From Myxococcota bacterium (lineage in GTDB: Bacteria > Myxococcota_A > SURF-8), in the NCBI GenBank assembly GCA_963674735.2, contig CAXXQS010000001.1, positions 2,592,001-2,656,000 of the forward strand: 64,000 nucleotides of DNA, in the 5' to 3' direction. The position numbers and the translations under genes were made by a program. Below, piece by piece: positions 8,291 through 62,958 of this stretch. Numbering within the stretch: the first letter of the stretch is position 1; every line of letters begins with the position of its first letter. The notes beneath the pieces were generated by a model, which saw only the letters and a program-made list of their open reading frames with translations, did not search any database and was not told where the DNA came from.

Positions 8291-10345
<2,055 letters not shown>

Positions 10346-10380
10346 CCGACATCCGCCACCGGGCGGCAGGAGACGCATTC

Positions 10381-11505: not shown

Positions 11506-11572
11506 GGGTTCGCCATCAACCGACACCGCCGGAGCGGCGGACAATCCGCCCCGGCGCAGCAACGAGGATACG

Positions 11573-34301: not shown

Positions 34302-35317
34302 ACCTGCTCGACCTCATTTCCGGTTCCACACTTCCGTTGGTCCTGATCGGATCGGAAAAGGGTGCGGGCAAAACCGTCACACTCAATCGGCTGCGCGCCG
34401 AAGCCCGGCAGGCCGGGTTGACGGCCTTCGGCCTGATGACCGCCGGGTGGGACGGCGAAAGCCGCGACCACCTGACCGGCAAAGAAAAGCCGCGCGTGAC
34501 GGCCTACCCCGATGATCTGGTGCTCACCGCCGCGAATTGTCTGACAAGCGCCGAAGCGCGCTTCGAGCTGTTGTGGAGCGATTCCATCTCCACACCGATG
34601 GGACGCATGGTATTGGGCCGCTGCAAACGCTCCGGCTACGTCGAGCTCGTCGCGCCTCCTTCCGGCCGACAGATGGCGGAAGCCGTCGCCCGCATGCAAA
34701 CGGAGGGGGTAACCCGCACCCTCATCGACGGGGCGGCCGATCGCCGCACGCATATCGGCATTACGGAAGATGTCGAAGTGGGCCTGGTGTTCCGGCCGCT
34801 GGAAAAAGAATCCATCGAAGCGTTTACACGGCGCGTATCGCGGACCACCGAACTTTTCGGGCTCGACCTCGCCACCGATGCACCGCCGGTCAAACCCCAT
34901 CCGCACCAAATTGCGTTGCACACACAAGGCGGATGGCGCTTGCTGAACGCCTCGACCTTCGAAAGCGATTTCGCGACTCATCAGGGCGAGACGGCCTGGA
35001 TCGGCGGTCCGTTGACCGAACGTCTGCTTCAGGCGCTGCCCAAACGGGGCGTCACCCACATCGTGGTACGCGACCCCTCGCGCTTTTTCATTTCCGAAAC
35101 GCTCGTGAAACGCAGCACCAAACGTGGCCTGTATTTTCACCTGCAACACCGGCCGCGCCTGCGCTTCGTCGCCGCCCGTTGCGACGGAGGAACGAACCGC
35201 AGCCTGCCGCCATTCGACACCCTCGACAGCCTGCGCAACGCCCTGCCCGGCGTTCCCTGTTTCGACCCCTGGTTGTTGGATCCCATCGATCGGGCAACCC
35301 ACGGGAGGACACGATGA
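34298..35317 (+). CDS. KamB-like P-loop protein (putative aminomutase reactivase subunit)
   Basis: GSEKGAGKT, GWDGESRD, LIDGAADRR; lies between kamA and the MutS-like gene; ATGA overlap. Confidence 0.65.
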   Translation: MNLLDLISGSTLPLVLIGSEKGAGKTVTLNRLRAEARQAGLTAFGLMTAGWDGESRDHLTGKEKPRVTAYPDDLVLTAANCLTSAEARFELLWSDSISTPMGRMVLGRCKRSGYVELVAPPSGRQMAEAVARMQTEGVTRTLIDGAADRRTHIGITEDVEVGLVFRPLEKESIEAFTRRVSRTTELFGLDLATDAPPVKPHPHQIALHTQGGWRLLNASTFESDFATHQGETAWIGGPLTERLLQALPKRGVTHIVVRDPSRFFISETLVKRSTKRGLYFHLQHRPRLRFVAARCDGGTNRSLPPFDTLDSLRNALPGVPCFDPWLLDPIDRATHGRTR

Positions 35318-36960: not shown

Positions 36961-36975
36961 TTCGGAGGACTTGCC

Positions 36976-38559
36976 GTGTCGACCGCTCATCCCCGCACTG
37001 CCAAGCTGAAACTGGATCGCCACAAGATCGACCGTGCCCGCGAACACGCAAAACGTATCGCCGACGACGTGCAAACCAGGTTGAATCGCCACACCACGGT
37101 CACAATCGAACGCACAACTTTGCGATTGTTGGGCCTCAAGGGCGTCAACGAAGAAGACGAACCCCTGCCGAATGTCGTGGTGGATCGGCTGGGCGACCGT
37201 CTGGGCGATGGGGTGGCGACGCCGTTCATCACCGCCGTGGCCCGCAGCGGCAAAGACCCCGAAACCCTGGCACGCGCCCTCGACAGCGGCGATCTCGCCT
37301 TGTTCGACGCCGAGCCGCTCCCCCCGGAGCGTCTGGCCGAAGCAACGACCGATCTGCTGAATCCGCAACTCGACCGCATCCAACGCATGACGGCCATCCG
37401 CGAAGAGAAAATCGCCGACGAGCCGCCGCGTTCGCAACCGCTGCTTTACGTCATCGTCGCCACCGGCAACATCTTCGAAGATATCCTGCAGGCGCAAGGC
37501 GCGGCCCGTCAGGGTGCCGACATCATCGCCGTGATTCGCGCCACCGCCCAAAGCCTGCTCGACTACGTTCCCTACGGCACCACCACCGAAGGTTTCGGCG
37601 GTACCTACGCCACGCAGGAAAATTTTCAGCTCATGCGCGACGCTCTCGATGTGGTGGGCGACGAACTGGGCCGTTACATCCGCCTGGTGAACTACGCCTC
37701 GGGGCTGTGCATGCCCGAGATCTCGGCCATGGGCGCGCTCGAAGGGCTGGACATGATGCTCAACGACAGCATGTACGGCATTCTGTTCCGCGACATCAAC
37801 ATGCTGCGCACCTTCTGCGATCAGCACTTCTCGCGCATGATCAACGCCTATGCGCGCACCACCATCAACACCGGGGAAGACAACTACCTCACCACCGCCG
37901 ACGCTGTGGAAGCGGCGAACACCGTTTTGGCCTCCGACCTGATCAACGAACAGTTCGCCCTTAACTCCGGCCTGACGCCCGACCTGATGGGGCTGGGCCA
38001 TGCCTATGAAATCAAGCCGGAGATCGAAAACAGCTTCCTGCTCGAACTGGCCATGGCGCAGATGCTGCGCGAAGTATTCCCCGAGCATCCGCTCAAATAC
38101 ATGCCGCCCACCAAACACATGACCGGCGACATCTTCCGCACCCATCTGGTCAATGCGTTGTTCAACCTCGTATCGCAATGGACCGGCCAGGGCATCCAAC
38201 TTCTGGGGATGCTCACCGAAGCCATCCACACTCCCTATCTGCAAGACCGCTATCTGGCGATTCAAAACGCCCGCTTGGTGATGAATGCCGTTCGCTCGAT
38301 CGGCGACGAACTGGTTTTCAAGGACGGCGGGTTGATACAAACCCGAGCCGCCCAAGTTTTGGATGAAACCACCACGCTTTTGGAAGAAGTGGCGGCGACG
38401 GGCCTGATGGATTCCATTGCACAGGGACGCTTCGCCGACGTCAAACGTCCCAAAGACGGCGGCAAAGGCCTGACGGGCGTCGCACCGAAAAGCGACCGCT
38501 ATTTCAATCCCATGTTGGATGTATTCAGAACCACGCTTCACGCGGTCATCGACGAGTAG
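36976..38559 (+). CDS. kamD: D-lysine/beta-lysine 5,6-aminomutase alpha subunit
   Basis: YVIVATGNIFEDI, GADIIAVIR, QSLLDYVPYG, NYASGLCMPEI, KYMPPTK. Confidence 0.96.
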   Translation: MSTAHPRTAKLKLDRHKIDRAREHAKRIADDVQTRLNRHTTVTIERTTLRLLGLKGVNEEDEPLPNVVVDRLGDRLGDGVATPFITAVARSGKDPETLARALDSGDLALFDAEPLPPERLAEATTDLLNPQLDRIQRMTAIREEKIADEPPRSQPLLYVIVATGNIFEDILQAQGAARQGADIIAVIRATAQSLLDYVPYGTTTEGFGGTYATQENFQLMRDALDVVGDELGRYIRLVNYASGLCMPEISAMGALEGLDMMLNDSMYGILFRDINMLRTFCDQHFSRMINAYARTTINTGEDNYLTTADAVEAANTVLASDLINEQFALNSGLTPDLMGLGHAYEIKPEIENSFLLELAMAQMLREVFPEHPLKYMPPTKHMTGDIFRTHLVNALFNLVSQWTGQGIQLLGMLTEAIHTPYLQDRYLAIQNARLVMNAVRSIGDELVFKDGGLIQTRAAQVLDETTTLLEEVAATGLMDSIAQGRFADVKRPKDGGKGLTGVAPKSDRYFNPMLDVFRTTLHAVIDE

Positions 38560-38567
38560 GAACCACC

Positions 38568-39305
38568 ATGACGATCGATCTTAAAAAAGTCAAACCCTAC
38601 GGCGACACCCTGGACGACGGGGCGATTCAGCTTTCCTTCACCTTGCCCATTCCCGCCGACGAGCGCGCCCCCGAAGCCGCTCGACAACTGACCGAGCGGA
38701 TGGGTTTCACCGATGTTCTGGTGGTGCACCACCACGACTTGGGAAACGGCTTCACCTTCTTTGTGGTGTATGGCAAAAGCGTCCACACAATCGATGTGGA
38801 ATCCATCGTGGTCCCCAAAGTGGAATCGAACGCCTACAGCTATTACGATGTCAATCGCCTGATCGAAACGCAGATCGGGCGCAAGCTGGTCGTCGTGGGC
38901 GCTTGTACCGGATCGGACGCGCATACCGTCGGTATCGACGCCGTTATGAACATGAAGGGGTATAACCAGCACTACGGGTTGGAACGCTATCCCTGGATCG
39001 AGGCGCTGAACATGGGCAGCCAAGTGCCTAACGACACCCTGTTGCGACGCGCCATCGACCTAAACGCCGATGCGGTGCTCGTCTCGCAGGTGGTGACGGC
39101 CAAGGATTCCCACGTGGAAAACCTGACCGAGTTCATCGAGCTGGCCGAAAGCTACGGCGTTCGCGGGAAAATGATTCTGATCGTCGGCGGTCCGCGGATC
39201 TCGCACCAACTCGCCCTGGAACTCGGTTTCAACGCCGGTTTCGGGCCCGGCACCTATGCCGAACACGTGGCCGGTTTCATCGTGGACGAAATCCTCAAAC
39301 GCTGA
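38568..39305 (+). CDS. kamE: Lysine 5,6-aminomutase beta subunit (AdoCbl-binding)
   Basis: KPYGDTLDDG, DAHTVG cobalamin motif, MNMKG PLP lysine. Confidence 0.96.
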   Translation: MTIDLKKVKPYGDTLDDGAIQLSFTLPIPADERAPEAARQLTERMGFTDVLVVHHHDLGNGFTFFVVYGKSVHTIDVESIVVPKVESNAYSYYDVNRLIETQIGRKLVVVGACTGSDAHTVGIDAVMNMKGYNQHYGLERYPWIEALNMGSQVPNDTLLRRAIDLNADAVLVSQVVTAKDSHVENLTEFIELAESYGVRGKMILIVGGPRISHQLALELGFNAGFGPGTYAEHVAGFIVDEILKR

Positions 39306-49560: not shown

Positions 49561-52500
49561 ATGCACACGATAAGTTTATCGATGGGGCGTCGGACCCTAT
49601 GGGTCCTTCTGTTGGCGCTGCTTCTTTTCGCAACCGCCGCCTGCAGCGATAGTAACAATCAGGCTGTGCCGGGCGACAACGAGGTGGCCACCGACGGCGA
49701 TACCGGTCCAATCGACGATGAATGTACGCTCGACAGCGAGTGCATCGACACGTACGGAAGCGGCTACGTGTGCTTCCTGGGCGCCTGCGTGACACAGAAC
49801 AGTTGCGCCGACACGTCCCTGGGCGACTGCGCCTTCGATAACGATTGCAATGCCGGTGAATATTGCGACGACACCTGCACCTGCACCGAATATGTCGACA
49901 CCGACGGCGACGACCCCTCCGATGGCGACGGCGGTGACGACAATTGGGATTGCAACAAGCAGCCCTGTATCACGATCAGCCCCAGCCGACTCAACTTCGG
50001 AGCCGTGGTGCTCAACGAATCCGGCCTGCAAACCTTCAACATCCGCAACGACGGCGGCGACGTGCTGGAAATCATCTCGATGGAATTCAGCAACGACACC
50101 AGCCCCGACTACGACTGGCAAGCCCGCCCCCAACTTCCCCTGCGCCTATCTCCCGGCGAATCTCAAGGTTACTCGATCCTGCTCACGCCAACCGATCCGG
50201 GTAAAGACCTCGGCAAAGTGGAAATCGTCTGCAACGATTTGAGCCGCACCGCCAATAACGGACAACCAGTGGTGATTCTGGAAAGCGAAGAAAAGGGCAC
50301 CTCCGAGATTTTCGTCTCGCCGACGGAATACGATTTCGGCGAAGTCGAGGTCGGCAGCCAGGAAATCCCCCTGCAGATCACCCTCAAAAACGTGCGCCCC
50401 GACACCCAGGATGAAGTGAACAAAACCCTGAGTATCCTCGGTATTACACTCGATCCGCCACCCTCCCAGCAGCCGAATTTCCGTTTACAGGAGAACCTGA
50501 GCGACAGCATCCCGATTTACCTCGGACCCGAAAACACCGCCTTCTTCTTCGTGTATTACCGGCCGCAAACGGAAGGCGTCCACGACGTGCGGATCGTCAT
50601 CACGCATGATGCCGATACCAACCCGTACTCCCCTCCCAGCCCGAACAACCAAGTGTATGTGGATCTGGAAGGCAGCGGGGTACAACCCTGCCTGGAAGTC
50701 GAGCCCAACCCCATCGATTTCGGAAAAATCACCGTCGGCCAGACCACCTCGAAGGAAGTCGCTTTACGCGCGGCCTGCGGCGGCACGATCGAAATCTGCG
50801 GCATCGAATGGCAGACCCCACCCGACGAGGATGAATTGAAGCTCGACGTCCGCGGCGGCGTGGCCAGCGCCATCATTCCGCCCAATCAATATCAAACATT
50901 CCGCGTGGAGGCATCTCCACAAACGTTGGGTTTCCAGCAATACTTCATCAACATCTGCAGCAACGACATCGACGAACCGACCCAGAAAATACCGGTCCAA
51001 TTTGAAGGCGTCCAGAGCCTGATCGTGGTGCAGCCCACCGTGATCGACTTCGGCCGGGTGTTGCTCGAATCCACCGATTCCGAAACCCTCACCGTTACAA
51101 ACATGGGCACCGGCCAACTCGATATCACCAGTATCACGGTCACCAACCCCACCGAAGACGCGCAAGCGTTTACGCTCGATCCGGTCGACGCGCAGTCCCT
51201 GCCCGTTACTTTGGACTATACCGCATCGGAGACATTCACCATCCGTTACACGCCGCGCCATCAGCAGGAACTGTTCGTCCATGAAGGAAAACTGACCATC
51301 CACACCAACAACCCCACCACACCGCAGTACGACGTTACCGTGCGTGGAACGGCTGTGTGGCCCTGGTGTCAATTCTCCGTGGTCGGCGATCCCAACTTCG
51401 TCGACACGATCGATTTCGGTGAAGTGGCCATCGGCACCTCGAAAACCAACAAACTGCGTGTCACCAATGAAGGCTCTTACAAATGCGAAGTTCCGCAGGT
51501 GAAGGTCATCTCGGGCACCAGCGAGTTTTACACCGTCTGGCCACCGAGCAACACGGGCATCGAACCCGGCGACCACTTCGATTTCGACATCACTTATGAA
51601 CCGCAGCTTTACACCGGTCAACACAACGCGGTATTGCAGGCGCAAACCAACGATTTTCGGCCCGACCATGCCGAGGCCGATTTCAACCTTCATGGTTCGG
51701 GCGTTAACCCTGTGATCGCCGTATCACCGCCGACCACCTTGGCGTCTCCCCACGATTTCGGCGAAGTCGAAAACAACACCTGCAAGGGACCGGTGGAAAT
51801 CCGGGTGCAGAACATCGGCTTCGGAACCCTGGTCATCGATGAAATCGGGATCGCACTGATGAGCGTCGAAGAGGCCTGGCCGATGGTCAACTTCGATCCA
51901 CCCCTGGTGGAATCGGTTGAAATCGCCCCCAATTCCAGCCAGGAACCCAACAAAGAATGGGTATTCACGGTGGATTTCTGCCCCTATCATTACCTCTTCC
52001 AGCACAAGCTTCACCTGTGGATCCACTCCAACGACCCGGTCAACGAGTTGACTTGGGTGTATTTCGAAGGCACGGGCGTGCCCTGCCAGGACGAGCATTA
52101 CACCATCGACCCCGAAGATCCCTGCGGGTACTACTGCTTCCGGCCCACCCCGGAATCCCAGGTGCCGTATGAAATCTGCGACGGCTACGACAACGATTGC
52201 GACGGAAACACCGATGAAGACTTCCCCATCGGCGTGCAGTGCGACGGCGTCGGCGCCTGCGGGCTGGGCACCTATGAGTGCGCGGGCGATCGTTTCTCGG
52301 TGCGCTGCTCCACCGACGTGGGCGGCTCGCAGTTCGTCTACAACGAGGAAGTGTGCGACACCCTCGACAACGATTGCGACGGAGAAACCGACGAAAACTT
52401 CCTCGTCGGCGAAATCTGCGTCGGCGAAGGCGAATGCGGTCTCGGTGAATGGCGCTGTAAAACGGCTTCCGAAGCCTACTGCAACGCCAACGACAACGGG

Positions 52501-54438
52501 GCAGCGGACGACCAATGCGATGGACTGGACAACGACTGCGATGGCGAAGTCGACGAAGATCCTTATTTCGTCGCTTACAAAGGCGATCCGGCTCCCCGCT
52601 GCAACGATAACGGCCACTGCATCGGCGACTTGTGCACCGGTCAGGGCGGTTGCGGCACGGAAGGCTTCGGCTTCATCGAATGCGCTTCGCCCCTGACCAT
52701 CGACGACAAATACTGGGTGCAGTGTTCCTCCGATCCGCACGGCAGCACCAGCTCGAACTCCTATGAAGTCTGCAACGACCAGGACGACGACTGCGATAGC
52801 GAGACCGATGAGGATTATTTCACCGGTCGTTACGATCAGGAACCCCATCTGGTGGGAACTCAATGCCAAGGCCAGGGCGTTTGCGGCTTCGGCGTATGGG
52901 AATGCGACCCGCGCAACTTCCTGCAGGTTATCTGCTCGACCGACATCGGCGGCAGCGACTATATCTTCCAACAGGAAACCTGCGACGGCTTCGATAACGA
53001 TTGCGACGGCATGACCGACGAGGATTTCAGCATCTACGATCCGCAAGGCAACCCGGTATCCTGTTCGGGAACGGGCGAATGCGGACAAGGCGTATGGGAA
53101 TGCCACCCCAACGGCACCACCCGCCGCTGTTCCAGCGATCCGGGCGGCAGCGACTACATCTACTTCCAGGATTTCTGCGACGGACTGGATAACGATTGCG
53201 ACGGGGAAACCGACGAAAGCTACAACATCAACGATCCCTGCATCGGAATCGGCCAATGCGGCTCCGGTGTCTGGGAATGCGACACCACCACGACGGTGCG
53301 CTGCTCCACCAACCCCGGCGGATCCGAAAACATGGCCGAGCCGGAATTATGCGATAACCTGGACAACAACTGCAACGGTCTCACCGACGATTTCATGCAG
53401 GTCGGCCAACCCTGCGAAGGTTTGGGAGAATGCGGACCGGGCATTTACGAGTGTAAAAACTTAAACGAGCAACGCTGCTCCACCGACTATTCCGGCAGCC
53501 AGTACCAAGGCTCCCCCGACATCTGCGATGGGTTGGACAACAACTGCAACGGCCAGACGGATGAAGATTACGGTGCAGGCCAAACCTGTATCGGTATCGG
53601 CGTCTGCGGGGAAGTGCCGGGCGAGTGGGAGTGCGCCAGCACAAACTCGCGCCGCTGCTCCACCATGCCGGGCGGCAGCGCAGACCGCAGTTCGGAAGAA
53701 ATCTGCAACGAGAAGGATGACGATTGCAATGGGTACGTCGATGAGACCTTCGACTTCTCGACCGATCCCAGCAACTGCGGCGGATGCAACATCGACTGTG
53801 AAGCCCCCAACGGCGTACCCGACTGCGACAATGGTCGGTGTGTCGTCGCGGGATGTTCATCCGGTTATTACGACATCGATGGCGAAGCCGATAATGGTTG
53901 CGAATGCCTCGTGGATTCCTCCGACAGCGGAGGCGTCGGAAATTCTTGCGGGAATTCCGTGCAGACCAACCCCCCGATCCTGATCGACAACAACCACCAG
54001 TATGCGCTGGTATCTGGAAACATTGCCCCGCTGACCGATGCCGATTGGTTCCAGTTTCAAGCGCAGGACGGCCCGGAATCGGGCCCGAACTACTGTGACG
54101 AATTCTTCGTATCGGTTCAATTCACGAACAACCCGGACGCCGAATTCGCCTTCGACATCTACCTGAACGACTGCGCGGAGATGGTCTGCACCGGTGAAAC
54201 GAACTACAATTTCGCCACCGACGACAAATTCCCTCCCGTTACGGCGGATGACAAAGCCTGGGGCCGCGGCCATTGCCCGTGCAAACCGACGGCGCAAAGT
54301 GTCACCGGGTTCAACAATTGCGAAACGCAGAATCTGACCTTCTTCGTAAAGGTCTACCGAGCGCTATCGGCGGGCCAAAGCCCGACCTGCAGCACGTATG
54401 AACTGGAGGTATCCAACGGGCTATACAGCAGCCCGTAA
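49561..54438 (+). CDS. Giant Cys-rich surface lipoprotein: about 6 Ig-like (choice-of-anchor D/ASH-like) domains and 9 CDG.DNDCDG.TDE repeats
   Basis: Lipobox TAAC; repeated P...(D/N)FG.V domain starts; nine putative metal-binding (MopE-like) repeats; 1625 aa. Confidence 0.8.
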   Translation: MHTISLSMGRRTLWVLLLALLLFATAACSDSNNQAVPGDNEVATDGDTGPIDDECTLDSECIDTYGSGYVCFLGACVTQNSCADTSLGDCAFDNDCNAGEYCDDTCTCTEYVDTDGDDPSDGDGGDDNWDCNKQPCITISPSRLNFGAVVLNESGLQTFNIRNDGGDVLEIISMEFSNDTSPDYDWQARPQLPLRLSPGESQGYSILLTPTDPGKDLGKVEIVCNDLSRTANNGQPVVILESEEKGTSEIFVSPTEYDFGEVEVGSQEIPLQITLKNVRPDTQDEVNKTLSILGITLDPPPSQQPNFRLQENLSDSIPIYLGPENTAFFFVYYRPQTEGVHDVRIVITHDADTNPYSPPSPNNQVYVDLEGSGVQPCLEVEPNPIDFGKITVGQTTSKEVALRAACGGTIEICGIEWQTPPDEDELKLDVRGGVASAIIPPNQYQTFRVEASPQTLGFQQYFINICSNDIDEPTQKIPVQFEGVQSLIVVQPTVIDFGRVLLESTDSETLTVTNMGTGQLDITSITVTNPTEDAQAFTLDPVDAQSLPVTLDYTASETFTIRYTPRHQQELFVHEGKLTIHTNNPTTPQYDVTVRGTAVWPWCQFSVVGDPNFVDTIDFGEVAIGTSKTNKLRVTNEGSYKCEVPQVKVISGTSEFYTVWPPSNTGIEPGDHFDFDITYEPQLYTGQHNAVLQAQTNDFRPDHAEADFNLHGSGVNPVIAVSPPTTLASPHDFGEVENNTCKGPVEIRVQNIGFGTLVIDEIGIALMSVEEAWPMVNFDPPLVESVEIAPNSSQEPNKEWVFTVDFCPYHYLFQHKLHLWIHSNDPVNELTWVYFEGTGVPCQDEHYTIDPEDPCGYYCFRPTPESQVPYEICDGYDNDCDGNTDEDFPIGVQCDGVGACGLGTYECAGDRFSVRCSTDVGGSQFVYNEEVCDTLDNDCDGETDENFLVGEICVGEGECGLGEWRCKTASEAYCNANDNGAADDQCDGLDNDCDGEVDEDPYFVAYKGDPAPRCNDNGHCIGDLCTGQGGCGTEGFGFIECASPLTIDDKYWVQCSSDPHGSTSSNSYEVCNDQDDDCDSETDEDYFTGRYDQEPHLVGTQCQGQGVCGFGVWECDPRNFLQVICSTDIGGSDYIFQQETCDGFDNDCDGMTDEDFSIYDPQGNPVSCSGTGECGQGVWECHPNGTTRRCSSDPGGSDYIYFQDFCDGLDNDCDGETDESYNINDPCIGIGQCGSGVWECDTTTTVRCSTNPGGSENMAEPELCDNLDNNCNGLTDDFMQVGQPCEGLGECGPGIYECKNLNEQRCSTDYSGSQYQGSPDICDGLDNNCNGQTDEDYGAGQTCIGIGVCGEVPGEWECASTNSRRCSTMPGGSADRSSEEICNEKDDDCNGYVDETFDFSTDPSNCGGCNIDCEAPNGVPDCDNGRCVVAGCSSGYYDIDGEADNGCECLVDSSDSGGVGNSCGNSVQTNPPILIDNNHQYALVSGNIAPLTDADWFQFQAQDGPESGPNYCDEFFVSVQFTNNPDAEFAFDIYLNDCAEMVCTGETNYNFATDDKFPPVTADDKAWGRGHCPCKPTAQSVTGFNNCETQNLTFFVKVYRALSAGQSPTCSTYELEVSNGLYSSP

Positions 54439-54510: not shown

Positions 54511-54729
54511 ATGATGCAGGCACGCTTACACAAGAAGCTTTATAGCTCCGCCGGTGTAAAAAATGCAATCTCGGCTTACAGCGAGCTTTGTCATAGCGAA
54601 ATGGCGAAGGATGGCGATCATTATGTGGTAACCTTCTCCGCCATCGACCCCGACATCAAGGATGTTCTGGTCGATGAATTCGCCAACTACGCGCTGTATG
54701 GCACGATTGCAGGAAAGAAGACATGGTAG
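54511..54729 (+). CDS. hxsD: HxsD-like small protein of a His-Xaa-Ser system
   Basis: 72 aa, LYS..V..AI.AY...EFANYAL pattern; overlaps the start of the radical SAM gene. Confidence 0.7.
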   Translation: MMQARLHKKLYSSAGVKNAISAYSELCHSEMAKDGDHYVVTFSAIDPDIKDVLVDEFANYALYGTIAGKKTW

Positions 54730-56204
54730 TCAACCCCAAGAAAATCAATAAATCACTCGCCAATATTCGCTTTCGGCGATTGAACGACCAGATTCTGGTC
54801 ACCAACGATCTCGGCCGCTGGATCTGGCTGTCCGAGGAGCAGTTCGAACAACTTCTGAACGACGATGTCGAGGCGGATTCCGACTTGCATCAATCCCTGA
54901 ACCAAAAGGAATTCCTGCGCGATCCCAATTATCTGCATCGGGCGACCGACATCACACGCTGGCGTAGCGAATTTCTGAACTCGGGTCCGAATCTGCACAT
55001 CATGATTCTGACTCTGCGCTGCAACTACACCTGTCGCTATTGCCACGCCTCGCGCGAAGCCATGGACCGACAGGAATTCGACATGCCGATCGAACGGGCG
55101 CGTCAGGTAATCGACGCGATTTTCGACAGTCCCTCCCCGGCGGTCAACATCGAGTTTCAGGGTGGCGAGCCGCTGGCCAACTGGGATGCATTGCGGTTTG
55201 CGGTGGAATACGCCACCGAGAAAAACGCCCAGGCCGGAAAAGATCTGGCGTTCACCCTGGTTTCCAATCTCAGCTTGATGGACGACGAGAAACTGGCTTT
55301 CCTGTTGGACAACAACGTTTACGTTTGCACATCTCTGGACGGTCCGAAGGAACTCCACGAAAAGAACCGCGTGTGGTGCGATGGATCGAGCTACGACGCC
55401 ACCGTACAATGGATTGAGCGCTTCCATGACGAATACAAAAAGCGCGGCTACGACCTGGACGTCTTTCACGTCGATGCCCTGATGACCACCACGCGCTTCT
55501 CGCTGCCGCTGTGGAAGGAAATCATCGATGAATACGTCAAACTCGGGCTGAAATCCATTCACCTGCGGCCGCTCAACCCCTTCGGTTTCGTCACCAAAAC
55601 CTGGGAGCAGATCGGTTACTCGATGGAGGAGTTCAACGATTTCTACGAGAAATCGCTGGAGTACATCATCCAGCTCAATCTCAAGGGAACCGAATTGATC
55701 GAACGCATGGCAGCCATCTACCTCACTCGCATTCTCACCGACCGCGACCCCAACTACATGGAATTGCGTTCGCCTTGCGGGGCCGGCATCGGCCAGATCG
55801 CCTATAACTACGACGGCAAGGTTTTCACCTGCGACGAAGGTCGCATGATGGATCAAATGGGCGACAGTATTTTCCAGATGGGTGAAATCGAGCATGATTG
55901 CTACAACGACATGATCGAATCGGACGCCGTTCGAACCCTGGTTCTCGCCTCGGTGCAGGATGGCCTGCCCTTCTGCAGCGATTGCGCTTACAAGCCTTAC
56001 TGCGGCGTTTGTCCGATATACAATTACGCCACCCAAGGCGATATCTTCGGCCAGATGCCGACCAACGGACGGTGCAAGCAGGCCATGGCCAGCTTCGACC
56101 GGCTGTTCACGTACTTAATGAAAGAAGATCGCGATATTCAAAGCGTGTTCGAGCGTTGGATCACTGTGAAGTTCCGTCAAATCGACGCGTGTGATCCCTA
56201 TTAA
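54723..56204 (+). CDS. hxsB: His-Xaa-Ser system radical SAM/SPASM maturase
   Basis: CNYTCRYC, IEFQGGEPL, LRSPCGAGIGQIAYNYDGKVFTCDEGRM, CSDCAYKPYCGVCP; adjacent to the HxS precursor. Confidence 0.88.
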   Translation: MVVNPKKINKSLANIRFRRLNDQILVTNDLGRWIWLSEEQFEQLLNDDVEADSDLHQSLNQKEFLRDPNYLHRATDITRWRSEFLNSGPNLHIMILTLRCNYTCRYCHASREAMDRQEFDMPIERARQVIDAIFDSPSPAVNIEFQGGEPLANWDALRFAVEYATEKNAQAGKDLAFTLVSNLSLMDDEKLAFLLDNNVYVCTSLDGPKELHEKNRVWCDGSSYDATVQWIERFHDEYKKRGYDLDVFHVDALMTTTRFSLPLWKEIIDEYVKLGLKSIHLRPLNPFGFVTKTWEQIGYSMEEFNDFYEKSLEYIIQLNLKGTELIERMAAIYLTRILTDRDPNYMELRSPCGAGIGQIAYNYDGKVFTCDEGRMMDQMGDSIFQMGEIEHDCYNDMIESDAVRTLVLASVQDGLPFCSDCAYKPYCGVCPIYNYATQGDIFGQMPTNGRCKQAMASFDRLFTYLMKEDRDIQSVFERWITVKFRQIDACDPY

Positions 56205-56217
56205 GGAGGATCGGCGA

Positions 56218-56622
56218 ATGACCGCCAAAAAGATTCCGGAAATCAAGAAAAAGGTGAACATGTTCCTCCAAGGCGAGGAAGGAAAAATCACCAAGAAGCA
56301 GGCTCTTACCGTTTCAACCACCCTGATCCTCCTGGGACAAACGCTTTCCGCCGAAGCGGCCGAAACGGGCCACAGCGAGGCGGGACACGAGGACATGCAT
56401 ACCTGGGATCCGGGTGCGATGGAACATCCGATGGCCGCCGTGGATGGGCAACTGCACGCCGGACACTGCTCGCATGGTTCCCACGGCTCGCATGGTTCCC
56501 ACGGCTCGCACGGCTCGCACGGTTCGCATGGTTCGCATGGTTCGCACGGCTCGCACGGCTCGCACGGTTCGCATGCTTCGCATGCCTCCCATGGTTCGCA
56601 CGGCTCCCACGGAAGCTGGTGA
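56218..56622 (+). CDS. hxsA: His-Xaa-Ser repeat precursor peptide (HxsA-like), 134 aa
   Basis: AAGGAGG RBS; C-terminal HCS-(HGS)11-(HAS)2-(HGS)3-W; flanked by two radical SAM genes. Confidence 0.88.
   Translation: MTAKKIPEIKKKVNMFLQGEEGKITKKQALTVSTTLILLGQTLSAEAAETGHSEAGHEDMHTWDPGAMEHPMAAVDGQLHAGHCSHGSHGSHGSHGSHGSHGSHGSHGSHGSHGSHGSHASHASHGSHGSHGSW
56464..56616 (+). repeat. 9-bp coding repeat array, 17 His-Xaa-Ser triplets
   Basis: ca(c/t)-gg(c/t)-tc(g/c) units with synonymous variation. Confidence 0.95.
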
Positions 56623-57587
56623 CCGTCGAACGCATGGCAACACCGAGCTTCAGTCGGCTGGCTTTCGTGCTCACCACCCGCTGCAGCTTGCGTTGTCGTT
56701 ACTGCCCGGTCGACAAAGACAATCGCTCGATGGCTCCGGATACGCTCCGACGAGCCATCGAGCTTTTTTATGGACCCGGAATCGAAGAAATCCGCACCAG
56801 CGGAGGCGATCCGCTGCAACGACTCGACCTGCTGGATCTTCTGCTTGAAACACTTCCCCCCCAAAGCCTCCTGCGACTGACCACCAACGGCTTAGGCTTG
56901 AACGAACAATTACTCGATCGTTTCGACGCCGACCCGCGCATACGGCTTGTGGCCAGCGTCGATGGAACCCGCACAAGCCATTGTACCGAACGGCAAGCGG
57001 CATCGGGTGGCGACAGCTACGCCTGGTTCGAACGCTACAGGGCGCGACTTGTCGCCTTTACCCATACCGTCACGCTCAATGTCGTCATCGCTCCCAGCCA
57101 GGCGGATCGCCTGGTTGAGAACATCGCTTATCTGGCCAAATGCGGTTTCCGCCGCTTCAATCTGCTACCGGCTTACTACGTCGAGTGGTCACCGGAAGCG
57201 ATCGGAGCGCTTGCCCGCCAATTCGATAAGCTGGCCAAGTTCTGGGATGGCGCCTGGCGACGCGACCTTCGGCTCGAATGCGTCAACATGGAGCAACAAG
57301 CCGCCCAGCCTCTCTACACCGATGCATTGGTTATCGATACGGATGGCGAGATATACGACAACGACCTCATCACGACCCGTGCGCTTTCCCCCGACCGACA
57401 TCGTTTTTCACTCGGCAACATCCACCAACTTGCCTCAATAAACGACCTTGACGAATCCCGCGCCCCGGTGTCCTGGTGGGAGGTTCTGGAGGCTCGTCTA
57501 GGCTCCGACATTATGGAGGCTACACACCGAGTGGACGAACAGCTCACCGCCTTCATCTTGCGCCTGCAGAATCTTTGCGAGCCATAG
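56619..57587 (+). CDS. Second radical SAM protein of the Hxs cluster (no Cys-rich SPASM domain)
   Basis: CSLRCRYC, SGGDPL, LTTNG, SVDG; GTGA overlap with the precursor stop (alternative ATG 56634). Confidence 0.85.
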   Translation: MTVERMATPSFSRLAFVLTTRCSLRCRYCPVDKDNRSMAPDTLRRAIELFYGPGIEEIRTSGGDPLQRLDLLDLLLETLPPQSLLRLTTNGLGLNEQLLDRFDADPRIRLVASVDGTRTSHCTERQAASGGDSYAWFERYRARLVAFTHTVTLNVVIAPSQADRLVENIAYLAKCGFRRFNLLPAYYVEWSPEAIGALARQFDKLAKFWDGAWRRDLRLECVNMEQQAAQPLYTDALVIDTDGEIYDNDLITTRALSPDRHRFSLGNIHQLASINDLDESRAPVSWWEVLEARLGSDIMEATHRVDEQLTAFILRLQNLCEP

Positions 57588-57624: not shown

Positions 57625-57654
57625 TTGACATCCCAAACAGGGGGACGGTATAGT
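57625..57654 (+). promoter_or_regulatory. sigma70 promoter of the B12 operon
   Basis: TTGACA-18-TATAGT directly upstream of the riboswitch. Confidence 0.75.
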
Positions 57655-57812
57655 CGGGGGGTCTTGTAGGCAGCGAATAGGGAAGATCGGTGAAACACCG
57701 ACGCGGTCCCGCCGCCGTAAGCGAGGACGAAACCGGCATTGGCCACTGGGGTAAACCTGGGAAGGCGCCGGAAGTAGGATGATTCGCGAGCCGGAAAACC
57801 TGTCGCGCCTGC
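57655..57812 (+). promoter_or_regulatory. Cobalamin riboswitch
   Basis: AATAGGGAA, CGGTGAAA..CCG, CCCGCCGCCGTAA, GCCACTG, GGGAAGG and B12-box GAGCCGGAAAACCTG in canonical order; TonB receptor downstream. Confidence 0.93.
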
Positions 57813-58057
57813 TGCTGGGTATTGTCTCCTCGCGGAGGGAGAGTTGCCGGTGCCATCTTTTGGACCAGTCTCCTTTCGCCACGAGTCGACGCGTGTTGCA
57901 ACACCCGTCCTTCGTGGCGTTTTTGTCGAAAGCACAGGTTTCGTCTGTGTATTCTCGGCACTCCTCCCCAAATTGCCAATACCCCATTCATCCGATGCTT
58001 CTATCTGGTCGCGTCCTTCGACGCTTGGAGTGTGTGTCGACGAATAAGGAGAAATCC

Positions 58058-59437
58058 ATGACGAAACGGTTATTGCTGGTTGTCCTACTCGGATGTTTGC
58101 TTTCAGGTCTGTTCTTGACAAGTTGTGGCGACGACTATCTCGAAGATCCACCTGACGGAGACGACAATCCCGACGGCGATGACCCGGATGGTGACGACCC
58201 CGATGGCGACGACCCCGACGGCGACGAGCCCGATGGTGATGATCCCGATGGCGACGAGCCCGATGGTGATGATCCCGATGGCGATGATCCCGATGGCGAT
58301 GATCCCGATGGCGACGATCCCGACGGCGACGACCCGGAACCCCTCGACATCCTCGGCGACTACCTCGACGGCTGGGAGGGCTTCCATCGCATCACGGCTG
58401 ATAGCTGGCAACAGGGCGTCGGTCCTGATGCTTCCTTCTTCAACATCACACAATACGACAACGACACCATGATGCTGATCGCCCAGAACGACAGCGACAA
58501 CACCTGGAACCCCGATCTGTGGAGCCGCTTCGATTGGACATGGACCAGCGCTGGAACCCGAACGCAAACCTTATACTATTGCCAGACCGTCTACGATGCC
58601 GCCAGCGAACAAGCCGCACTCGATACAACCGCCGCCGATGCAACCGATCTCACCACCGGCTGCGGCGGTTTCGCCTGGAGCATGCTGACTCCCGGCGACG
58701 AACCCCTCGCGATTATCGGAAACTACGACGACTCTTGGAGCATGCATCACGACATCACCCAAACCTCTTGGGTACAAAGCGGATACGGAACGCCGTCGGT
58801 TTTCCATATCAGCCAATTCAACAACACAAACCAGGTTCTGATCACGCAAAACGACCACCAGAATACATACAATCCCGGGTTGTGGAGCCGCTTCGATTGG
58901 ACATGGGCCGACAGCGGTACCCGGACGCAAACCTCATATTATTGCCAGACTGCCTACGATGCCGCCAGCGAACAGGCCGCCCTCGATACCGCTCGTGCCG
59001 ACGACAGCGACCTCGCCACCGGCTGTGGCGGTAATGCGTGGAGCTCTCTGACTCCCGGTGATGCATTCCCGATGATTATGGGTGATTTCACTGACGATTA
59101 CTCCATGGCTCATGCCATTAGCGAAACAAGTTGGACTCAAAGCGGCTTTGGCGACCCGAGTATCTTTACCTTCACTCAAATCGACAACCAGATCCAAACG
59201 TTGATCGCACAAAACGACTCCGCCAATCCCTACAATCCCGATTTGTGGAGCCGTTTCGATTGGACATGGAACCTGGATGCAACGAACGGGTGGGAACTGT
59301 ATATCTGCCAAACCACTTACGACGCCGCCAGCGAGCAGGCCGCGCTCGATACCGCTCGTGCCGACGACAGCAACCTCGCCACCGGTTGCGGCGGTTTCGG
59401 TTGGAGTAAACTGACACGCGCGACTTCCAGTCGCTGA
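58058..59437 (+). CDS. Lipoprotein with PDGDD stalk and three tandem ~120-aa uncharacterised domains
   Basis: AAGGAGA RBS, lipobox LTSC; [39 protein letters not shown] occurs three times. Confidence 0.85.
58151..58333 (+). repeat. 15-bp coding repeat, 12 x PDGD(D/E)
   Basis: ccn-gay-ggy-gay-gan units. Confidence 0.95.
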
Positions 59438-59463
59438 TTAGCCAAGTTGAAGAGGAAACGATT

Positions 59464-60774
59464 ATGAATCGCTTCTTAACGAACATGCCCATCTCCGGAG
59501 TTCTCCTCGCCACTACCATCGCCCTATTCCTCGGTTGTTCGGGCGGGGAGGACTCCGGATCCCCCTTATCATGCGATGTCGGCTATCAGAATATCGATGG
59601 GGTTTGTGAACCCATCGACGCGGACGGCGATCGTGAAGACACCGATCTCTGTGCAGGCAGCGACTGCGGAACACACGCCACCTGCGATCCGACTTCCGGC
59701 CAATGCGTCTGCGATGAAGGATATGAGCCCTTAGGCAGCGGCTGTGTGGCGGTCGCTCCCGATGGTGACGATCCCGACGGCGACGACCCCGACGGCGACG
59801 ACCCGGACGGCGACGACCCCGACGGCGACGACCCCGACGGCGACGATCCCGACGGTGACGACCCCGACGGTGACGACCCGCGCCCTCCCTGCCCGGTTCC
59901 ACAGGCTCCAGCCATGCCGATTCTCCCCATCGGTGCCGTTTTATCATTTCATGTCGAGGGTGACACTCCGATTGAAATCGGCACGCAGCAAGGCAAATCG
60001 ACCGATACTCCCGCAAGCTGGACCGAAAAATCGACCATCACCCTCGAAAATGCCGGTCTGATGACCATTTTCGCCCGAACACAAGACGAAGACTGCCGTC
60101 CATTGCCTTTCCGCTATGCTTATGATGTACGCGAAACATTCCCTCCGGCCGCCGGACAACCGGACAGCAGCGCCATCACTAAAGACGATCCGGCGATTAT
60201 CGGCTGGGCCAACTCCGTCGAAAACATCACCTTCGGTACGGAAGTGGATGCGGAATGGAAAGATTCCGACCAAGCGCTGGGAGCGGCGGAAGGCTCTTCC
60301 ACGACCATCGTCAGCCTTGGACGTGGTGGGCTTATCACCTTGGGTTTTGCCTCTTCCATCAAGAACGGAGATGGAGCCGATCTGGCGGTGTTCGAAAACA
60401 GCTTCAACGACACCTTCCTGGAGCTGGCTTTCGTCGAAGTGTCGAGCGACGGCGAAACTTTCCTGCGCTTCGATAACGCCTATCTCGGTGAAACGGCGAT
60501 TGCCGCCTATGGCACACACAATCCGACGCTATTCGATGGCTTGGCCGGAAAATATCGCCGGGGTTTCGGCACGCCATTCGATCTGTCCAGCCTTTCCAAT
60601 CGTCCCGAGGTGCTTGATGGAAGCGTCGATCTCGATAACATTAGCTATGTGCGTATCGTGGATATCGTCGGCGACGGAACCGCATTCGACAGCTTCGGCC
60701 ATGTCATTTACGACCCCTACCCCACCATCGGCAGCGCAGGTTTCGACCTCGACGCCGTGGCGGCGCTGAACTAA
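59464..60774 (+). CDS. Lipoprotein with EGF-like module, PDGDD stalk and C-terminal putative corrinoid-binding surface domain
   Basis: Lipobox FLGC; CGTHATC..CVCDEGY; [45 protein letters not shown]. Confidence 0.75.
59758..59877 (+). repeat. 15-bp coding repeat, 8 x PDGDD
   Basis: Direct inspection. Confidence 0.95.
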
Positions 60775-60795: not shown

Positions 60796-62958
60796 ATGCC
60801 GCTTGGAAAACGCCCGGACATGATGCTCTTGCTTCTCCTGCTTATGCCGGGCTTGTTGGATGTCCAAGCGTTCGCCACCGAGACGCAAAATGAGTCCGAT
60901 GCAGCAGATACGTCCGATGCGGCTGATACGTCCGATGCGGCTGATGCGTCCGATGCGGCTGATGCGTCCGATGCGGCTGATACGGCAAATGCAGCAGGTG
61001 AAACAGATACGACGAATGCGGCTTACGTACTCGATCCTGTTACCGTGCGAGATGTCCGCGCCTCGCGTGATCTCAAACACGATCGCGCCGCCGCCGGAAC
61101 CGTCCTCTTGCGCGAAGACTTCGACGACGCAGGCGAAACCTTGCCCAGTTTGCTCGACCAGCAAGCCGGGGTTCGTTTAACGCGCCTCGGTGGACCGGCT
61201 TCGTTCGCCGCACTCTCGATTCGCGGCTCCACCAGCGATCAAGTCCAGCTCGTTCTCGATGGGGTCTCGCTCAATTCCGCCGCCGGTGGACCGGCCGATT
61301 TCTCGCATCTGCCCCTCGGCAATATCGAACGCATCGAGATTTATCGCGGAGCCGCACCGCTGGTGTATGGCGGGAGCGCAATCGGCGGCACGGTCGCCCT
61401 CACCACCCGTCGCGCTCGACAGCGCGAACTCACACTTTCCAGTGGAGGCGGTTCTTTCGGCGCACGCGAAGCACGCCTGTTCTATGCAGAACCCCAGGAA
61501 AAATGGGACCTGACCTTGGGATTGGATTACGCGGGTTGGAATGGCGCTTTCGATTATACCAACGACAACGGCACCCGCTTCGATTCCAGCGACGATCGGT
61601 CCGTCACCCGCCAAAACAACGCCTACGACCAGATCAACCTGTTGGGCACGTTCGCCCTTCGTCTTGCTGAGCAATGGCACGTGACCGTAACGGATTGGCT
61701 GTTTTGGCGCGACCAGGGCGTTCCGGGCCTAGGCCAGTTCGAAACCCGCCGAACCCAATACGGCCTGGCCGACAACCTGACGCTCATCCAGGTGGATGCC
61801 ACCGATCTGGGCAGACAACTCGACTGGCATATGCTCGCCTCCTTGCGCGTCAGCCATGCCACCTTCAGCGACCCGGAATCGGAAAGCGGCCTCGAAAACG
61901 ACGACGCCGACGATTGGACCTTAAGCCCGGCCTTGAGCAGCCACGCCTTGTTTCACCTCTTCGACTGGTGGGATCTGACCCTCATGGCGGCCTACCGCTA
62001 CGAGCGTCTTTCACCCGGCGACACGCAAAACCGAGCCGCCGCTTCCAGTCGCCATGACCTGCAAACCGGCCTGGAAACCGGTTTACGCATCGACGCCATC
62101 GATACCTTGATCCTGCCCAGTGCACGCCTGGAGGCGGCATTCAGCCGTCTCTCGACCGGCGCACACGCAACCGCGACCGCCATGCCCGTGGATAACGCCG
62201 ACCAACTCGAATGGACGACTCGGCTGGCGCTGGTCAACACGTCGATTCCCGATACGCGTCTGAGCCTGTCGGGAGGCCGCGCCGTTCGGCTACCCTCCTT
62301 ATTCGAGTTGTTCGGAAACACCGGGCGCGTCCTCGGCAACCCGAACCTGGACGCCGAAACAGCCCTGAGCTTCGATGGCGGTATTGTCTACGATTCCAGC
62401 ATGCTACCCGGCTCCAACCAGTTGCGTCTGGAGGCTTACGGATTTTATTCGCAGGTTGAAAACCTGATTCAATTCGTTCAAACGGCTCAAAATGTCTCGG
62501 TAGCCGAGAACGTCGACCGCGCCCGCCTGTGGGGCATCGAGAGCGGTGCCCGCGCCGATCTGTTTGCCCATTTGCGCCTAGCGGCAAACTATACCCTGTT
62601 GCTGGCGCGCAACACCGGGGACATCGCCGCCCGCAATGGAAACGATCTTCCACACCGTCCGGCATCGAAATGGTACGCCAGAATGGAAGGGTATGCGCGC
62701 GAGATTCCCGATATGGGAGAAGTCAGCCTGTATCTCGATGCCGAATGGATCGCCGGAAACTTTTTGGATAACGCCAATCTGGTGGCCACGGACGACCGCT
62801 TCTTTCTAAACACCGGTGTGGCTTTGACCTTCGGCGATAACGCCGCCACCCTGGCGCTTAGTTTTCGTAATTTGACCGACGAGCGGATTCAAGATCTGGC
62901 CGGATATCCCCTGCCGGGTCGCAGCTTCTCGCTCCTCATGACCTGGAAGGTGTTGTAA
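60796..62958 (+). CDS. TonB-dependent receptor, probable cobalamin transporter (BtuB-like)
   Basis: TonB-box-like DPVTV, plug LSIRGS..LDGV..IERIEIYRG, GNPNLDAE, GYPLPGRSF; downstream of a B12 riboswitch. Confidence 0.88.
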   Translation: MPLGKRPDMMLLLLLLMPGLLDVQAFATETQNESDAADTSDAADTSDAADASDAADASDAADTANAAGETDTTNAAYVLDPVTVRDVRASRDLKHDRAAAGTVLLREDFDDAGETLPSLLDQQAGVRLTRLGGPASFAALSIRGSTSDQVQLVLDGVSLNSAAGGPADFSHLPLGNIERIEIYRGAAPLVYGGSAIGGTVALTTRRARQRELTLSSGGGSFGAREARLFYAEPQEKWDLTLGLDYAGWNGAFDYTNDNGTRFDSSDDRSVTRQNNAYDQINLLGTFALRLAEQWHVTVTDWLFWRDQGVPGLGQFETRRTQYGLADNLTLIQVDATDLGRQLDWHMLASLRVSHATFSDPESESGLENDDADDWTLSPALSSHALFHLFDWWDLTLMAAYRYERLSPGDTQNRAAASSRHDLQTGLETGLRIDAIDTLILPSARLEAAFSRLSTGAHATATAMPVDNADQLEWTTRLALVNTSIPDTRLSLSGGRAVRLPSLFELFGNTGRVLGNPNLDAETALSFDGGIVYDSSMLPGSNQLRLEAYGFYSQVENLIQFVQTAQNVSVAENVDRARLWGIESGARADLFAHLRLAANYTLLLARNTGDIAARNGNDLPHRPASKWYARMEGYAREIPDMGEVSLYLDAEWIAGNFLDNANLVATDDRFFLNTGVALTFGDNAATLALSFRNLTDERIQDLAGYPLPGRSFSLLMTWKVL
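60895..60984 (+). repeat. 18-bp coding repeat, 5 x SDAAD(T/A), upstream of the TonB box
   Basis: tccgatgcggctgat(a/g)cg units. Confidence 0.9.

Follow-up and report, generated by a model that had tools for sequence, protein, structure and literature searches.

Which enzymes act on a protein whose C-terminal part consists of seventeen consecutive His-Xaa-Ser triplets, and what would such a protein do once matured? The question is raised by a 64,000-nt stretch of DNA from a host labelled Myxococcota, called the window throughout (it is the whole stretch analysed, and all positions are those of the stretch). Four abutting genes in the window encode a small HxsD-like protein, the radical S-adenosylmethionine (SAM) enzyme HxsB, the repeat-bearing precursor HxsA4 and a second radical SAM enzyme, denoted rSAM2. 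The locus is probably a variant His-Xaa-Ser (Hxs) maturation cassette, its four genes making and maturing a small, probably exported protein. A preliminary description had reported the order hxsD-hxsB-precursor-rSAM2 with overlapping or nearly abutting genes, a core of 17 triplets with 22 His in 134 aa, and a His-Xaa-Ser identity. The open reading frame (ORF) coordinates agree with the first point, the sequence reproduces the second exactly and comparison with hidden Markov models supports the third, three of the four genes passing curated NCBIfam models. Its suggestion of an uncharacterised biosynthetic system goes too far: three of the families are NCBI-named and the canonical kind was characterised in 2026. 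The system thus belongs to a known, NCBI-named and recently characterised kind, and is not a wholly uncharacterised class.

HxsB anchors the assignment. It scores 554.3 bits with TIGR03978 (cut-off 370), is aligned over profile positions 3–466 of 466 and is the sole protein of the genome above that cut-off. The precursor passes NF038313 (80.9 bits, cut-off 55), a family in which a public homologue (P0170) is already named HxsA4, and the HxsD-like protein passes NF038315, HxsD_rel (74 bits, cut-off 41). All three remaining proteins fail the canonical models: HxsA4 gives 22.9 bits with HxsA TIGR03979 (cut-off 121.65), the HxsD-like protein 16.2 bits with HxsD TIGR03976 (cut-off 50) and rSAM2 20.1 bits with HxsC TIGR03977 (cut-off 267.9). 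No HxsC was found in the whole genome, where the top score with that model is 110.7 bits. The second radical SAM enzyme takes the role of HxsC but is not HxsC; its family is unnamed and no NCBIfam model covers it.

The genes are tightly packed in the order D-B-A-rSAM2 (Table 1). The hxsD-like stop and the hxsB start overlap by 7 nt, 13 nt separate the end of hxsB from the hxsA4 ATG, and the hxsA4 stop overlaps the GTG start of rSAM2. A Shine-Dalgarno sequence, AAGGAGG (56203–56209), lies 8 nt 5′ of the ATG at 56218; the hxsA4 frame is also open from a GTG at 56191, which would give 143 aa (56191–56622). For rSAM2 an alternative ATG at 56634, 15 nt past the GTG, would give 317 aa and agrees with the N-termini of the homologues about equally well.

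Table 1. Positions within the window of the Hxs cassette, of the parts of its precursor and of two neighbouring features
Feature	Position	Strand	Basis or remark
Four abutting genes	54511-57587	+	ORF list; one Hxs cassette
hxsD-like gene, 72 aa, small adaptor protein	54511-54729	+	NF038315
hxsB, 493 aa, radical SAM/SPASM maturase	54723-56204	+	TIGR03978
hxsA4 precursor, 134 aa from ATG 56218	56218-56622	+	NF038313
rSAM2, second radical SAM enzyme, 322 aa from GTG	56619-57587	+	Radical SAM protein
HxsA4 Lys-rich N-terminal leader, residues 1-27	56218-56298	+	Proposed maturase recognition sequence (role inferred)
HxsA4 hydrophobic core, residues 29-43, and Ser-Ala-Glu-Ala 44-47	56302-56358	+	Sec signal-like h-region, AxA site
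HxsA4 acidic His-bearing linker, residues 48-82	56359-56463	+	8 Asp/Glu, 5 His, 0 Lys/Arg
HxsA4 core, 17 His-Xaa-Ser triplets (Xaa: Cys 1, Gly 14, Ala 2) and C-terminal Trp	56464-56619	+	
Possible associated gene, 1625-aa Cys-rich protein	49561-54438	+	Pfam, NCBIfam; tentative link
Promoter-like site, 11/12 consensus matches	57625-57654	+	Just 3′ of cluster; likely separate downstream unit

The HxsA4 precursor

HxsA4 contains 22 His, 1 Cys and 2 Trp in its 134 residues. The core reads exactly HCS(HGS)11(HAS)2(HGS)3W, its triplets occupying 56464–56616, and Pfam finds no peptidoglycan-binding domain in the protein. Between the Lys-rich leader and the acidic linker sits a segment which, read by eye, resembles a secretion signal, with a 15-residue hydrophobic core, Ala at −3 and −1, and an n-region of 28 residues. 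The linker composition given in Table 1 was counted over the 38 residues from residue 45, all counted residues lying within 46–82. The mature part holds 22 His (25% His) and 8 Asp/Glu and is free of Lys and Arg. We infer from this layout a leader for the maturases joined to a Sec-type signal, an arrangement that would be the likely explanation for the lack of an exporter or protease gene. That lack had been pointed out before, and Pfam, NCBIfam and PADLOC indeed revealed neither in the window ORFs to which they were applied.

The alignment of HxsA4 comprises 18 homologues, drawn from the window and its relatives, from further families of Myxococcota and from two genomes of the candidate phyla radiation (CPR). 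Pro-7, Leu-17 and Glu-21 of the leader are invariant in all 18, the CPR and distant Myxococcota forms included. Sixteen contain a stretch of roughly 15 hydrophobic residues and, after it, a site of the Ala-x-Ala type; the stretch is missing in those of L024 and L026 (L, G and f numbers are our handles for loci, genomes and families). The linker after this stretch is variable and acidic; past residue 45 the same-order homologues (n = 13) have at most one Lys/Arg and between 4 and 12 Asp/Glu. Cys opens the tract in 16 of the 18, the other two being paralogues, and the C-terminal Trp is found in every one. The H-x-S frame is likewise preserved throughout, with the longest unbroken run ranging from 6 to 19 triplets. 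As judged from the alignment, this conservation of frame is far beyond chance and points to selection at the level of the peptide. We note one unusual homologue on a Falkowbacteria contig (L062:5223–5996, +), which has 257 aa and a 19-triplet tract; an insert of some 130 residues, rich in Cys and aromatic residues, lies between its hydrophobic segment and the tract.

The DNA of the core is less regular than the peptide it encodes. Nine distinct 9-nt units are found among the 17 triplets, and His (CAC 10, CAT 7), Gly (GGT 7, GGC 6, GGA 1) and Ser (TCG 12, TCC 4, AGC 1) are all encoded by mixed codons. The preliminary description had taken such mixing as a sign of selection on the peptide rather than of slippage. 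The number of unit types and the preserved frame are in keeping with the first half of that statement; the second half needs amending, because Tandem Repeats Finder detects a 45-nt higher-order repeat (2.8 copies, 90% matches), one 9-nt unit occurs five times and TCG makes up 71% of the Ser codons in the core against 20% in neighbouring genes. Gly codon use differs as well. DNA duplication therefore also shaped the array. The sequence is best read as a triplet array built by block duplication, with the peptide pattern held by selection.

The maturation enzymes

In HxsB the three cysteines of the CxxxCxxC motif (Cys-100, Cys-104 and Cys-107) are invariant in 15 of 15 sequences, and those of the SPASM region (352, 370, 418, 421, 427, 430 and 451) are retained in 12–14 of the 15. 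Among solved structures, sequence profiles place CteB nearest (5wgg, E 2e-32), and the N-terminal extension of HxsB, about 90 residues long, partly aligns with the N-terminal region of CteB. The best secondary NCBIfam matches are thioether-forming maturases and the anSME group, at 116–124 bits. In one related genome (G009) HxsB is split into two overlapping ORFs (L038:1453–2598 and 2585–2986, −), possibly by a frameshift, as a pseudogene or through an assembly error.

The hxsD-like gene sits immediately 5′ of hxsB in all hxsB loci examined except L060, in which none was detected, and L013, where the contig ends; the pairing persists where rSAM2 sits elsewhere. The AlphaFold2 model of the protein (predicted local distance difference test score, pLDDT, 95.5) has a beta-alpha-beta-beta-alpha topology. 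Foldseek returned no match in the PDB at E ≤ 0.001, and the best VIA-align hit (Z 7.2) is to common ferredoxin-like alpha/beta domains and lies within the stated noise of the tool. A recognition fold of the PqqD type was considered; the fold searches gave no sign of it and offered no functional lead. A predicted complex of HxsB, rSAM2 and the HxsD-like protein gave a score of 0.00 for the last of these, which amounts to no verdict.

Among NCBIfam models PapB comes nearest to rSAM2, with 67 bits (cut-off 340). At E ≤ 1e-30 a full HMMER scan of 1.84 billion representatives recovers 38 relatives, a number that rises to 465 at E ≤ 1e-10. In an alignment of 36 full-length family members, no cysteines are conserved beyond the SAM-cluster trio of CxxxCxxC. 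None of the 36 reaches a cut-off-level score with any NCBIfam model; 26 match the HxsC model, the best E-value being only 9e-13. The AlphaFold2 model (pLDDT 94.5) is matched most closely in Foldseek by CteB and anSME (template modelling score 0.73, over the whole length), followed by ChlB, SkfB and SuiB. Because of this whole-length match, and because only the SAM-cluster cysteines are conserved, we assign rSAM2 from its predicted structure as a radical SAM protein of the peptide-maturase type, with a SPASM-like C-terminal region devoid of cluster ligands. Three of its relatives (P0010, P0013 and P0018, 1231–1324 aa) are giant proteins that match in three stretches each, which points to radical SAM domains fused in tandem. 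In a protein-atlas search by features, without alignment, the second-ranked cluster resembling rSAM2 was 56% viral (Uroviricota); we mention it as a lead.

Occurrence and genomic setting

The search for the genes covered 201 genomes sampled evenly across the phylum, with the model cut-off for HxsA4, E ≤ 1e-80 for HxsB and at least 250 bits for rSAM2. HxsA4 occurs in 65 genomes and HxsB in 75, with both in 63; the two genomes with HxsA4 only carry the gene on a short or cut contig. Full-length orthologues of rSAM2 were found in 26, all but one of which have HxsA4, the exception (G005) being 79% complete. HxsA4, HxsB and rSAM2 co-occur across genomes even if unlinked. The first two are present in about a third of the sampled Myxococcota genomes and behave like conserved housekeeping genes: prevalence within families is high, at 18 of 18 genomes in family f12 and 10 of 11 in f19. 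Orthologues of rSAM2 are concentrated near the window's own lineage (5/5 same-family, 4/4 same-order and 3/31 other same-phylum genomes). Among the nine genomes of the rest of the order, all have HxsB and rSAM2 and eight have HxsA4. In f12 HxsB accompanies HxsA4 in every genome and rSAM2 is found in none of the 18. Many f12 genomes (e.g. G017, G038, G053, G058, G093 and G108) have two HxsB-class genes above cut-off, and the duplicated HxsB may fill the role of rSAM2 there.

The arrangement of the genes varies. Related loci, 14 in all, were gathered with a 10-sequence rSAM2 alignment. The order D-B-A4-rSAM2 recurs in G003, G004, G015, G021, G036, G061 and G146, at two CPR loci and at another Myxococcales locus; in G015, G021 and G036 the leader has no hydrophobic segment. 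The precursor lies elsewhere in G001, G005 and G008, which have D-B-rSAM2, while G002 has B-rSAM2 on a contig cut upstream. Three separate places hold hxsD-hxsB, rSAM2 and hxsA4 in G006, G007 and G009. Beyond the phylum, the four-gene order is present on a Moraniibacteriota contig and a Falkowbacteria contig and D-B-rSAM2 on a Spirochaetes contig; in Omnitrophota and Elusimicrobia members of the rSAM2 family occur in other radical-SAM-rich contexts. Viewed from the precursor, the best 20 HxsA4 loci of other genomes comprise three full cassettes, four with D-B-A4 only and 13 without HxsB within about 7 kb, two of these 13 being cut by contig ends.

A second, unlinked hxsA4 is present in the window's genome (G000) and in G003 and G004. 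The G000 copy (L046:1438–1851, −; C2, about 1.271 Mb) encodes 137 aa with 17 triplets and scores 85.8 bits with NF038313. The Cys is missing from the G000 and G003 copies, Ala taking its place at the start of the tract in G000. Directly downstream of the G000 copy is a gene for a 289-aa protein (L046:459–1328, −) with no Pfam or NCBIfam match; the same type of protein adjoins the unlinked hxsA4 of G001 (L031) and G004 (L050).

The gene 5′ of the cassette may belong with it. It ends 72 nt before hxsD-like and encodes a Cys-rich protein of 1625 aa with a lipoprotein-like N-terminus, Ig-like domains, repeats of PF11617 (‘putative metal-binding motif’) and a C-terminal domain. Homologues of its C-terminal 295 aa adjoin Hxs genes in at least five families: f1 (G001, G003, G004 and G005), f2 (G006 and G009) and those of G128, G098 and G149. 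Such Cys-rich neighbours, with PF11617 repeats and the conserved C-terminal domain, are located at L072:5371–7590, L077:4099–6282, L084:12048–13337, L036:3381–4403 and L038:3377–4093, and another PF11617 protein adjoins the Hxs locus of G164. Because the window's genome holds only about 11 such genes, the adjacency looks more frequent than chance would give, and the Cys-rich protein may be a functional partner of the Hxs genes. We also record genes at L065:7811–10621 (+), L066:3825–5819 (−) and L074:9089–11020 (+), which deserve mention given the peptidoglycan-binding domain of canonical HxsA and may reflect family-level synteny.

On the 3′ side, long Asp-Pro-Asp-Gly repeats mark two putative lipoproteins that weakly match the LIC13354/LIC13355 families (57779–60774, +); a TonB-dependent receptor (60796–62958, +) comes next, 3 kb downstream of the cluster. 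These genes were considered as members of the system and rejected, since they show no synteny in any of the loci of 12 relatives and since a strong promoter-like site follows the cluster (Table 1). The genes of the window are otherwise housekeeping ones (DnaB, ThiD, PrkA/SpoVR, a carboxyltransferase, aminomutases), with one IS110-family transposase 34 kb away (19879–20814). Two further regions may be noted, the first with PrkA, an unnamed opposite-strand ORF and SpoVR (8291–13108), the second a B12 cluster with lysine-2,3-aminomutase and a D-ornithine-aminomutase-like protein (33024–39305).

Proposed function and relation to known systems

The His-Xaa-Ser system was reportedly defined in silico by Haft and Basu in 2011. 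In the literature searched, functional data on His-Xaa-Ser or HxsA–D come only from a 2026 study and its preprint, and no mention of HxsA2, HxsA3 or HxsA4 was found. The 2026 study (Li et al., Nat Commun 2026, PMC13128918, the source of the points that follow here) describes the hxsD-B-C-A operon of E. coli as an antiphage system that blocks 110 of 113 coliphages at the step of DNA entry. HxsA carries a signal, is processed N-terminally and is periplasmic. It bears a +8 Da modification on one SHRSS motif, modelled in the search settings as changes of +12.000 and −2.016 Da; the His and both flanking Ser of this motif are essential for defence, as is every HxS repeat. Mutation of the peptidoglycan-binding domain abolishes defence, to which the basic residues of the repeats have also been tied. 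HxsC pulls down HxsD and is modelled as the modifier, and mutation of its second Cys pair lowers processing. Canonical systems lie almost wholly in Pseudomonadota (99.7%) and are ordered D-B-C-A (99.6%). According to that study the exact chemistry is unresolved and reconstitution in vitro failed. The statement in the preliminary description that Hxs systems have no established product is thus outdated.

For the present locus we propose the following scheme tentatively, rating it somewhat under an even chance as a whole. HxsA4 would be translated with a composite N-terminus, in which the conserved Lys-rich leader serves the maturases and the Sec-type hydrophobic core and AxA site follow. The His/Ser tract would be modified in the cytoplasm through radical chemistry, by rSAM2 and by HxsB with the HxsD-like protein to which it is translationally coupled, the analogy being the +8 Da change on the SHRSS motif of E. 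coli HxsA. Sec export and cleavage after Ala-47 would then deliver an 87-aa acidic peptide, free of Lys and Arg and with all 22 His and the C-terminal Trp, to the periplasm or envelope. There it would bind or buffer metal ions multivalently, as a conserved housekeeping trait of the lineage.

Several reasons lead us to prefer a metal-binding role, which the preliminary description had raised and which stays plausible, to the DNA-binding antiphage one that canonical HxsA plays. The effector is without the peptidoglycan-binding domain and the basic residues tied to defence in E. coli. Bufferins offer a precedent for Sec-exported metallophores among peptides that are made on ribosomes and modified after translation (RiPPs), as described in PMC11626156. 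The genes are near-universal within families, scattered over the chromosome and multi-copy, and PADLOC showed no defence genes near them among the window ORFs tested. Finally, the mature part is acidic, rich in His and without Lys or Arg, and PF11617 proteins are recurrent neighbours.

Several observations weigh against this proposal. Plain His-rich tails bind metals without the help of two radical SAM enzymes. The cluster has no metal transporter, metallochaperone or metal regulator next to it, relatives show no synteny for the downstream TonB-dependent receptor, and the metal-binding label of PF11617 is only putative. The n-region of the signal-like segment is unusually long for a Sec signal, and export is not universal, because the distant HxsA4 forms of L024 and L026 have no hydrophobic segment. 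An rSAM2 orthologue is missing from 40 of the 65 HxsA4 genomes, so the enzyme is not essential to the HxsA4 family, and genome counts drawn from related genomes describe a pattern and are not independent. For every HxsA4 the scheme draws on sequence, models and analogy, and the sole homologous system tested is antiphage.

That last point leads to the alternative that matured, periplasmic HxsA4 blocks entry of phage DNA as in E. coli, which we regard as possible though doubtful. HxsB belongs to the same family at equivalog level, and the two systems share a logic of a small HxsD-type protein, two radical SAM enzymes, an HxS-repeat substrate and an export-like signal. The breadth of the canonical defence and its need for all HxS repeats add to the case. 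Among E. coli HXS operons 77% do not overlap predicted prophage regions (PMC13128918), and a non-mobile context is therefore no argument for excluding defence. On the other side, HxsA4 has no peptidoglycan-binding domain detectable by Pfam, and its mature part has 8 Asp/Glu and no Lys/Arg where the E. coli repeats are basic. The genome has no HxsC, and the canonical systems, as reported, are nearly confined to another phylum. The distribution is also unusual for defence systems, the genes being near-universal within families and chromosomally scattered. None of 39 window ORFs matches a defence model in PADLOC-DB 2.0.0 (2023), which predates the 2026 HXS paper, bar a weak core similarity of the two radical SAM enzymes to pVip (42.3 and 28.1 bits).

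An extended form of the metal-binding proposal goes further. HxsA4 systems would be non-immune, a widespread trait of the envelope inherited vertically in Myxococcota and in some lineages of CPR, Omnitrophota and Spirochaetota. Two radical SAM enzymes, of which rSAM2 would have a SPASM fold that has lost its auxiliary clusters, would turn most or all of the 6–19 triplets into a repeating modified His/Ser unit, and the protein-sized product would act as a Sec-exported ‘poly-ligand’ binding or buffering metal ions beside Cys-rich envelope proteins. Taken in full this is rather unlikely. If true, it would add a chemically new class to the ribosomal metallophores and give Hxs chemistry a second function apart from defence.

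The preliminary description had instead envisaged a RiPP in which each His-x-Ser triplet is crosslinked to a three-residue cyclophane, at −2 Da each, to give a rigid poly-macrocyclic scaffold. The repeated aromatic-x-x triplets do resemble triceptide substrates, HxsB has a full SPASM domain and the structural relatives of rSAM2 include the peptide crosslinkers SuiB and SkfB. Both enzymes nevertheless fall far short of the cyclophane-maturase models: HxsB gives 50.6 bits with YhhB (cut-off 445) and 45.9 with GrrM/OscB (cut-off 310), and rSAM2 30.7 with YhhB and 25.3 with FxsB (cut-off 370). The only Hxs modification measured is +8 Da at one site (PMC13128918), the mature product of about 87 aa is protein-sized, and neither a leader protease nor a dedicated exporter was seen among the window ORFs tested. 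We therefore consider crosslinking of this kind improbable.

The modified site might also lie outside the triplets. Radical SAM/SPASM enzymes are capable of C-terminal processing, as by MftC on the mycofactocin precursor, and the invariant Trp, possibly with the Cys that opens the tract, could be the key site, the His tract being only a spacer or handle. Trp and Cys are indeed kept in 18 and 16 of the 18 homologues, whereas the longest run of triplets varies. The mycofactocin model yields 27.2 bits (cut-off 265), genes for a peptidase or for downstream tailoring are absent, the Cys is missing from two paralogues and the E. coli modification maps inside the HxS motif (PMC13128918), all of which make this reading very improbable. 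Scarcely credible is a collagen-like Gly-X-Y tract or a low-complexity ORF made by slippage and lacking specific maturation: Gly does recur at every third residue in 14 of 17 triplets, the 45-nt repeat exists and Pfam Collagen PF01391 scores 26.7 bits, just below its cut-off of 27.2, but Cys, Ala or Ser replaces Gly here (3/17 triplets) and in most homologues, which a collagen helix does not tolerate, the leader, frame and terminal Trp are conserved across phyla and HxsA4 is accompanied by HxsB in 63 of 65 genomes; the collagen reading was rejected.

Whichever function applies, the locus bears on several questions. Even in E. coli the Hxs chemistry on His-x-Ser is undefined, only a single +8 Da site having been mapped there; seventeen near-identical triplets would multiply the signal of a modification and could make the reaction tractable by mass spectrometry and nuclear magnetic resonance. 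The variant also helps to ask if HXS stands for a single function or for a platform of maturation that serves several kinds of effector, and an effector without the features linked to phage defence is evidence for a non-defence role of the Hxs machinery in Myxococcota. With rSAM2 comes a radical SAM family that has no name yet and whose SPASM-like domain lacks clusters, which bears on how such enzymes work without auxiliary clusters.

Among known systems the closest is canonical HXS. Both have HxsB above the equivalog cut-off with a small HxsD-type gene just 5′ of it, two radical SAM enzymes, no dedicated protease or exporter, and a substrate whose His-x-Ser repeats stand in tandem and whose N-terminus is of an export-like type. 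They differ in the second enzyme, which here is not HxsC and has no auxiliary-cluster cysteines where HxsC, as reported, has a second Cys pair, and in gene order, D-B-A-rSAM2 as against D-B-C-A. Seventeen contiguous, mostly Gly-centred triplets stand in place of five basic ones; HxsA4 has an acidic mature part and an invariant C-terminal Trp and no peptidoglycan-binding domain; and its host is labelled Myxococcota rather than Pseudomonadota, with components that are often unlinked. The NF038313 and NF038315 families, whose cut-offs the precursor and small protein pass, are naming models only, and the partner radical SAM enzyme has no NCBIfam model.

The enzymes can also be set beside CteB, the SCIFF maturase, PapB, QhpD and anSME, which figure as secondary matches of HxsB and structural matches of rSAM2. 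The thioether maturases differ in that scores here are far under their family cut-offs, the substrate has a single Cys, missing in 2 of 18 homologues, and they carry auxiliary clusters, which rSAM2 does not. In triceptides, it is repeated aromatic-x-x motifs that radical SAM/SPASM enzymes modify. Repeated triplets of that type and such an enzyme are found here too; the cyclophane enzyme models are not reached, and in the literature searched no −2 Da series is reported for any Hxs protein. Bufferins, finally, are MNIO-modified, Sec-exported, copper-binding RiPPs of the periplasm (PMC11626156). With the HxsA4 system as proposed they would share, in outline, an unusually long precursor, a Sec-type signal, cytoplasmic modification, no need for a dedicated exporter and the nature of a conserved chromosomal trait, and they are periplasmic metal-binding peptides, a property only proposed for HxsA4. 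The chemistry sets the two apart: MNIO/DUF2063 enzymes and Cys-derived thiooxazoles in bufferins, radical SAM enzymes and His ligands in the system proposed here.

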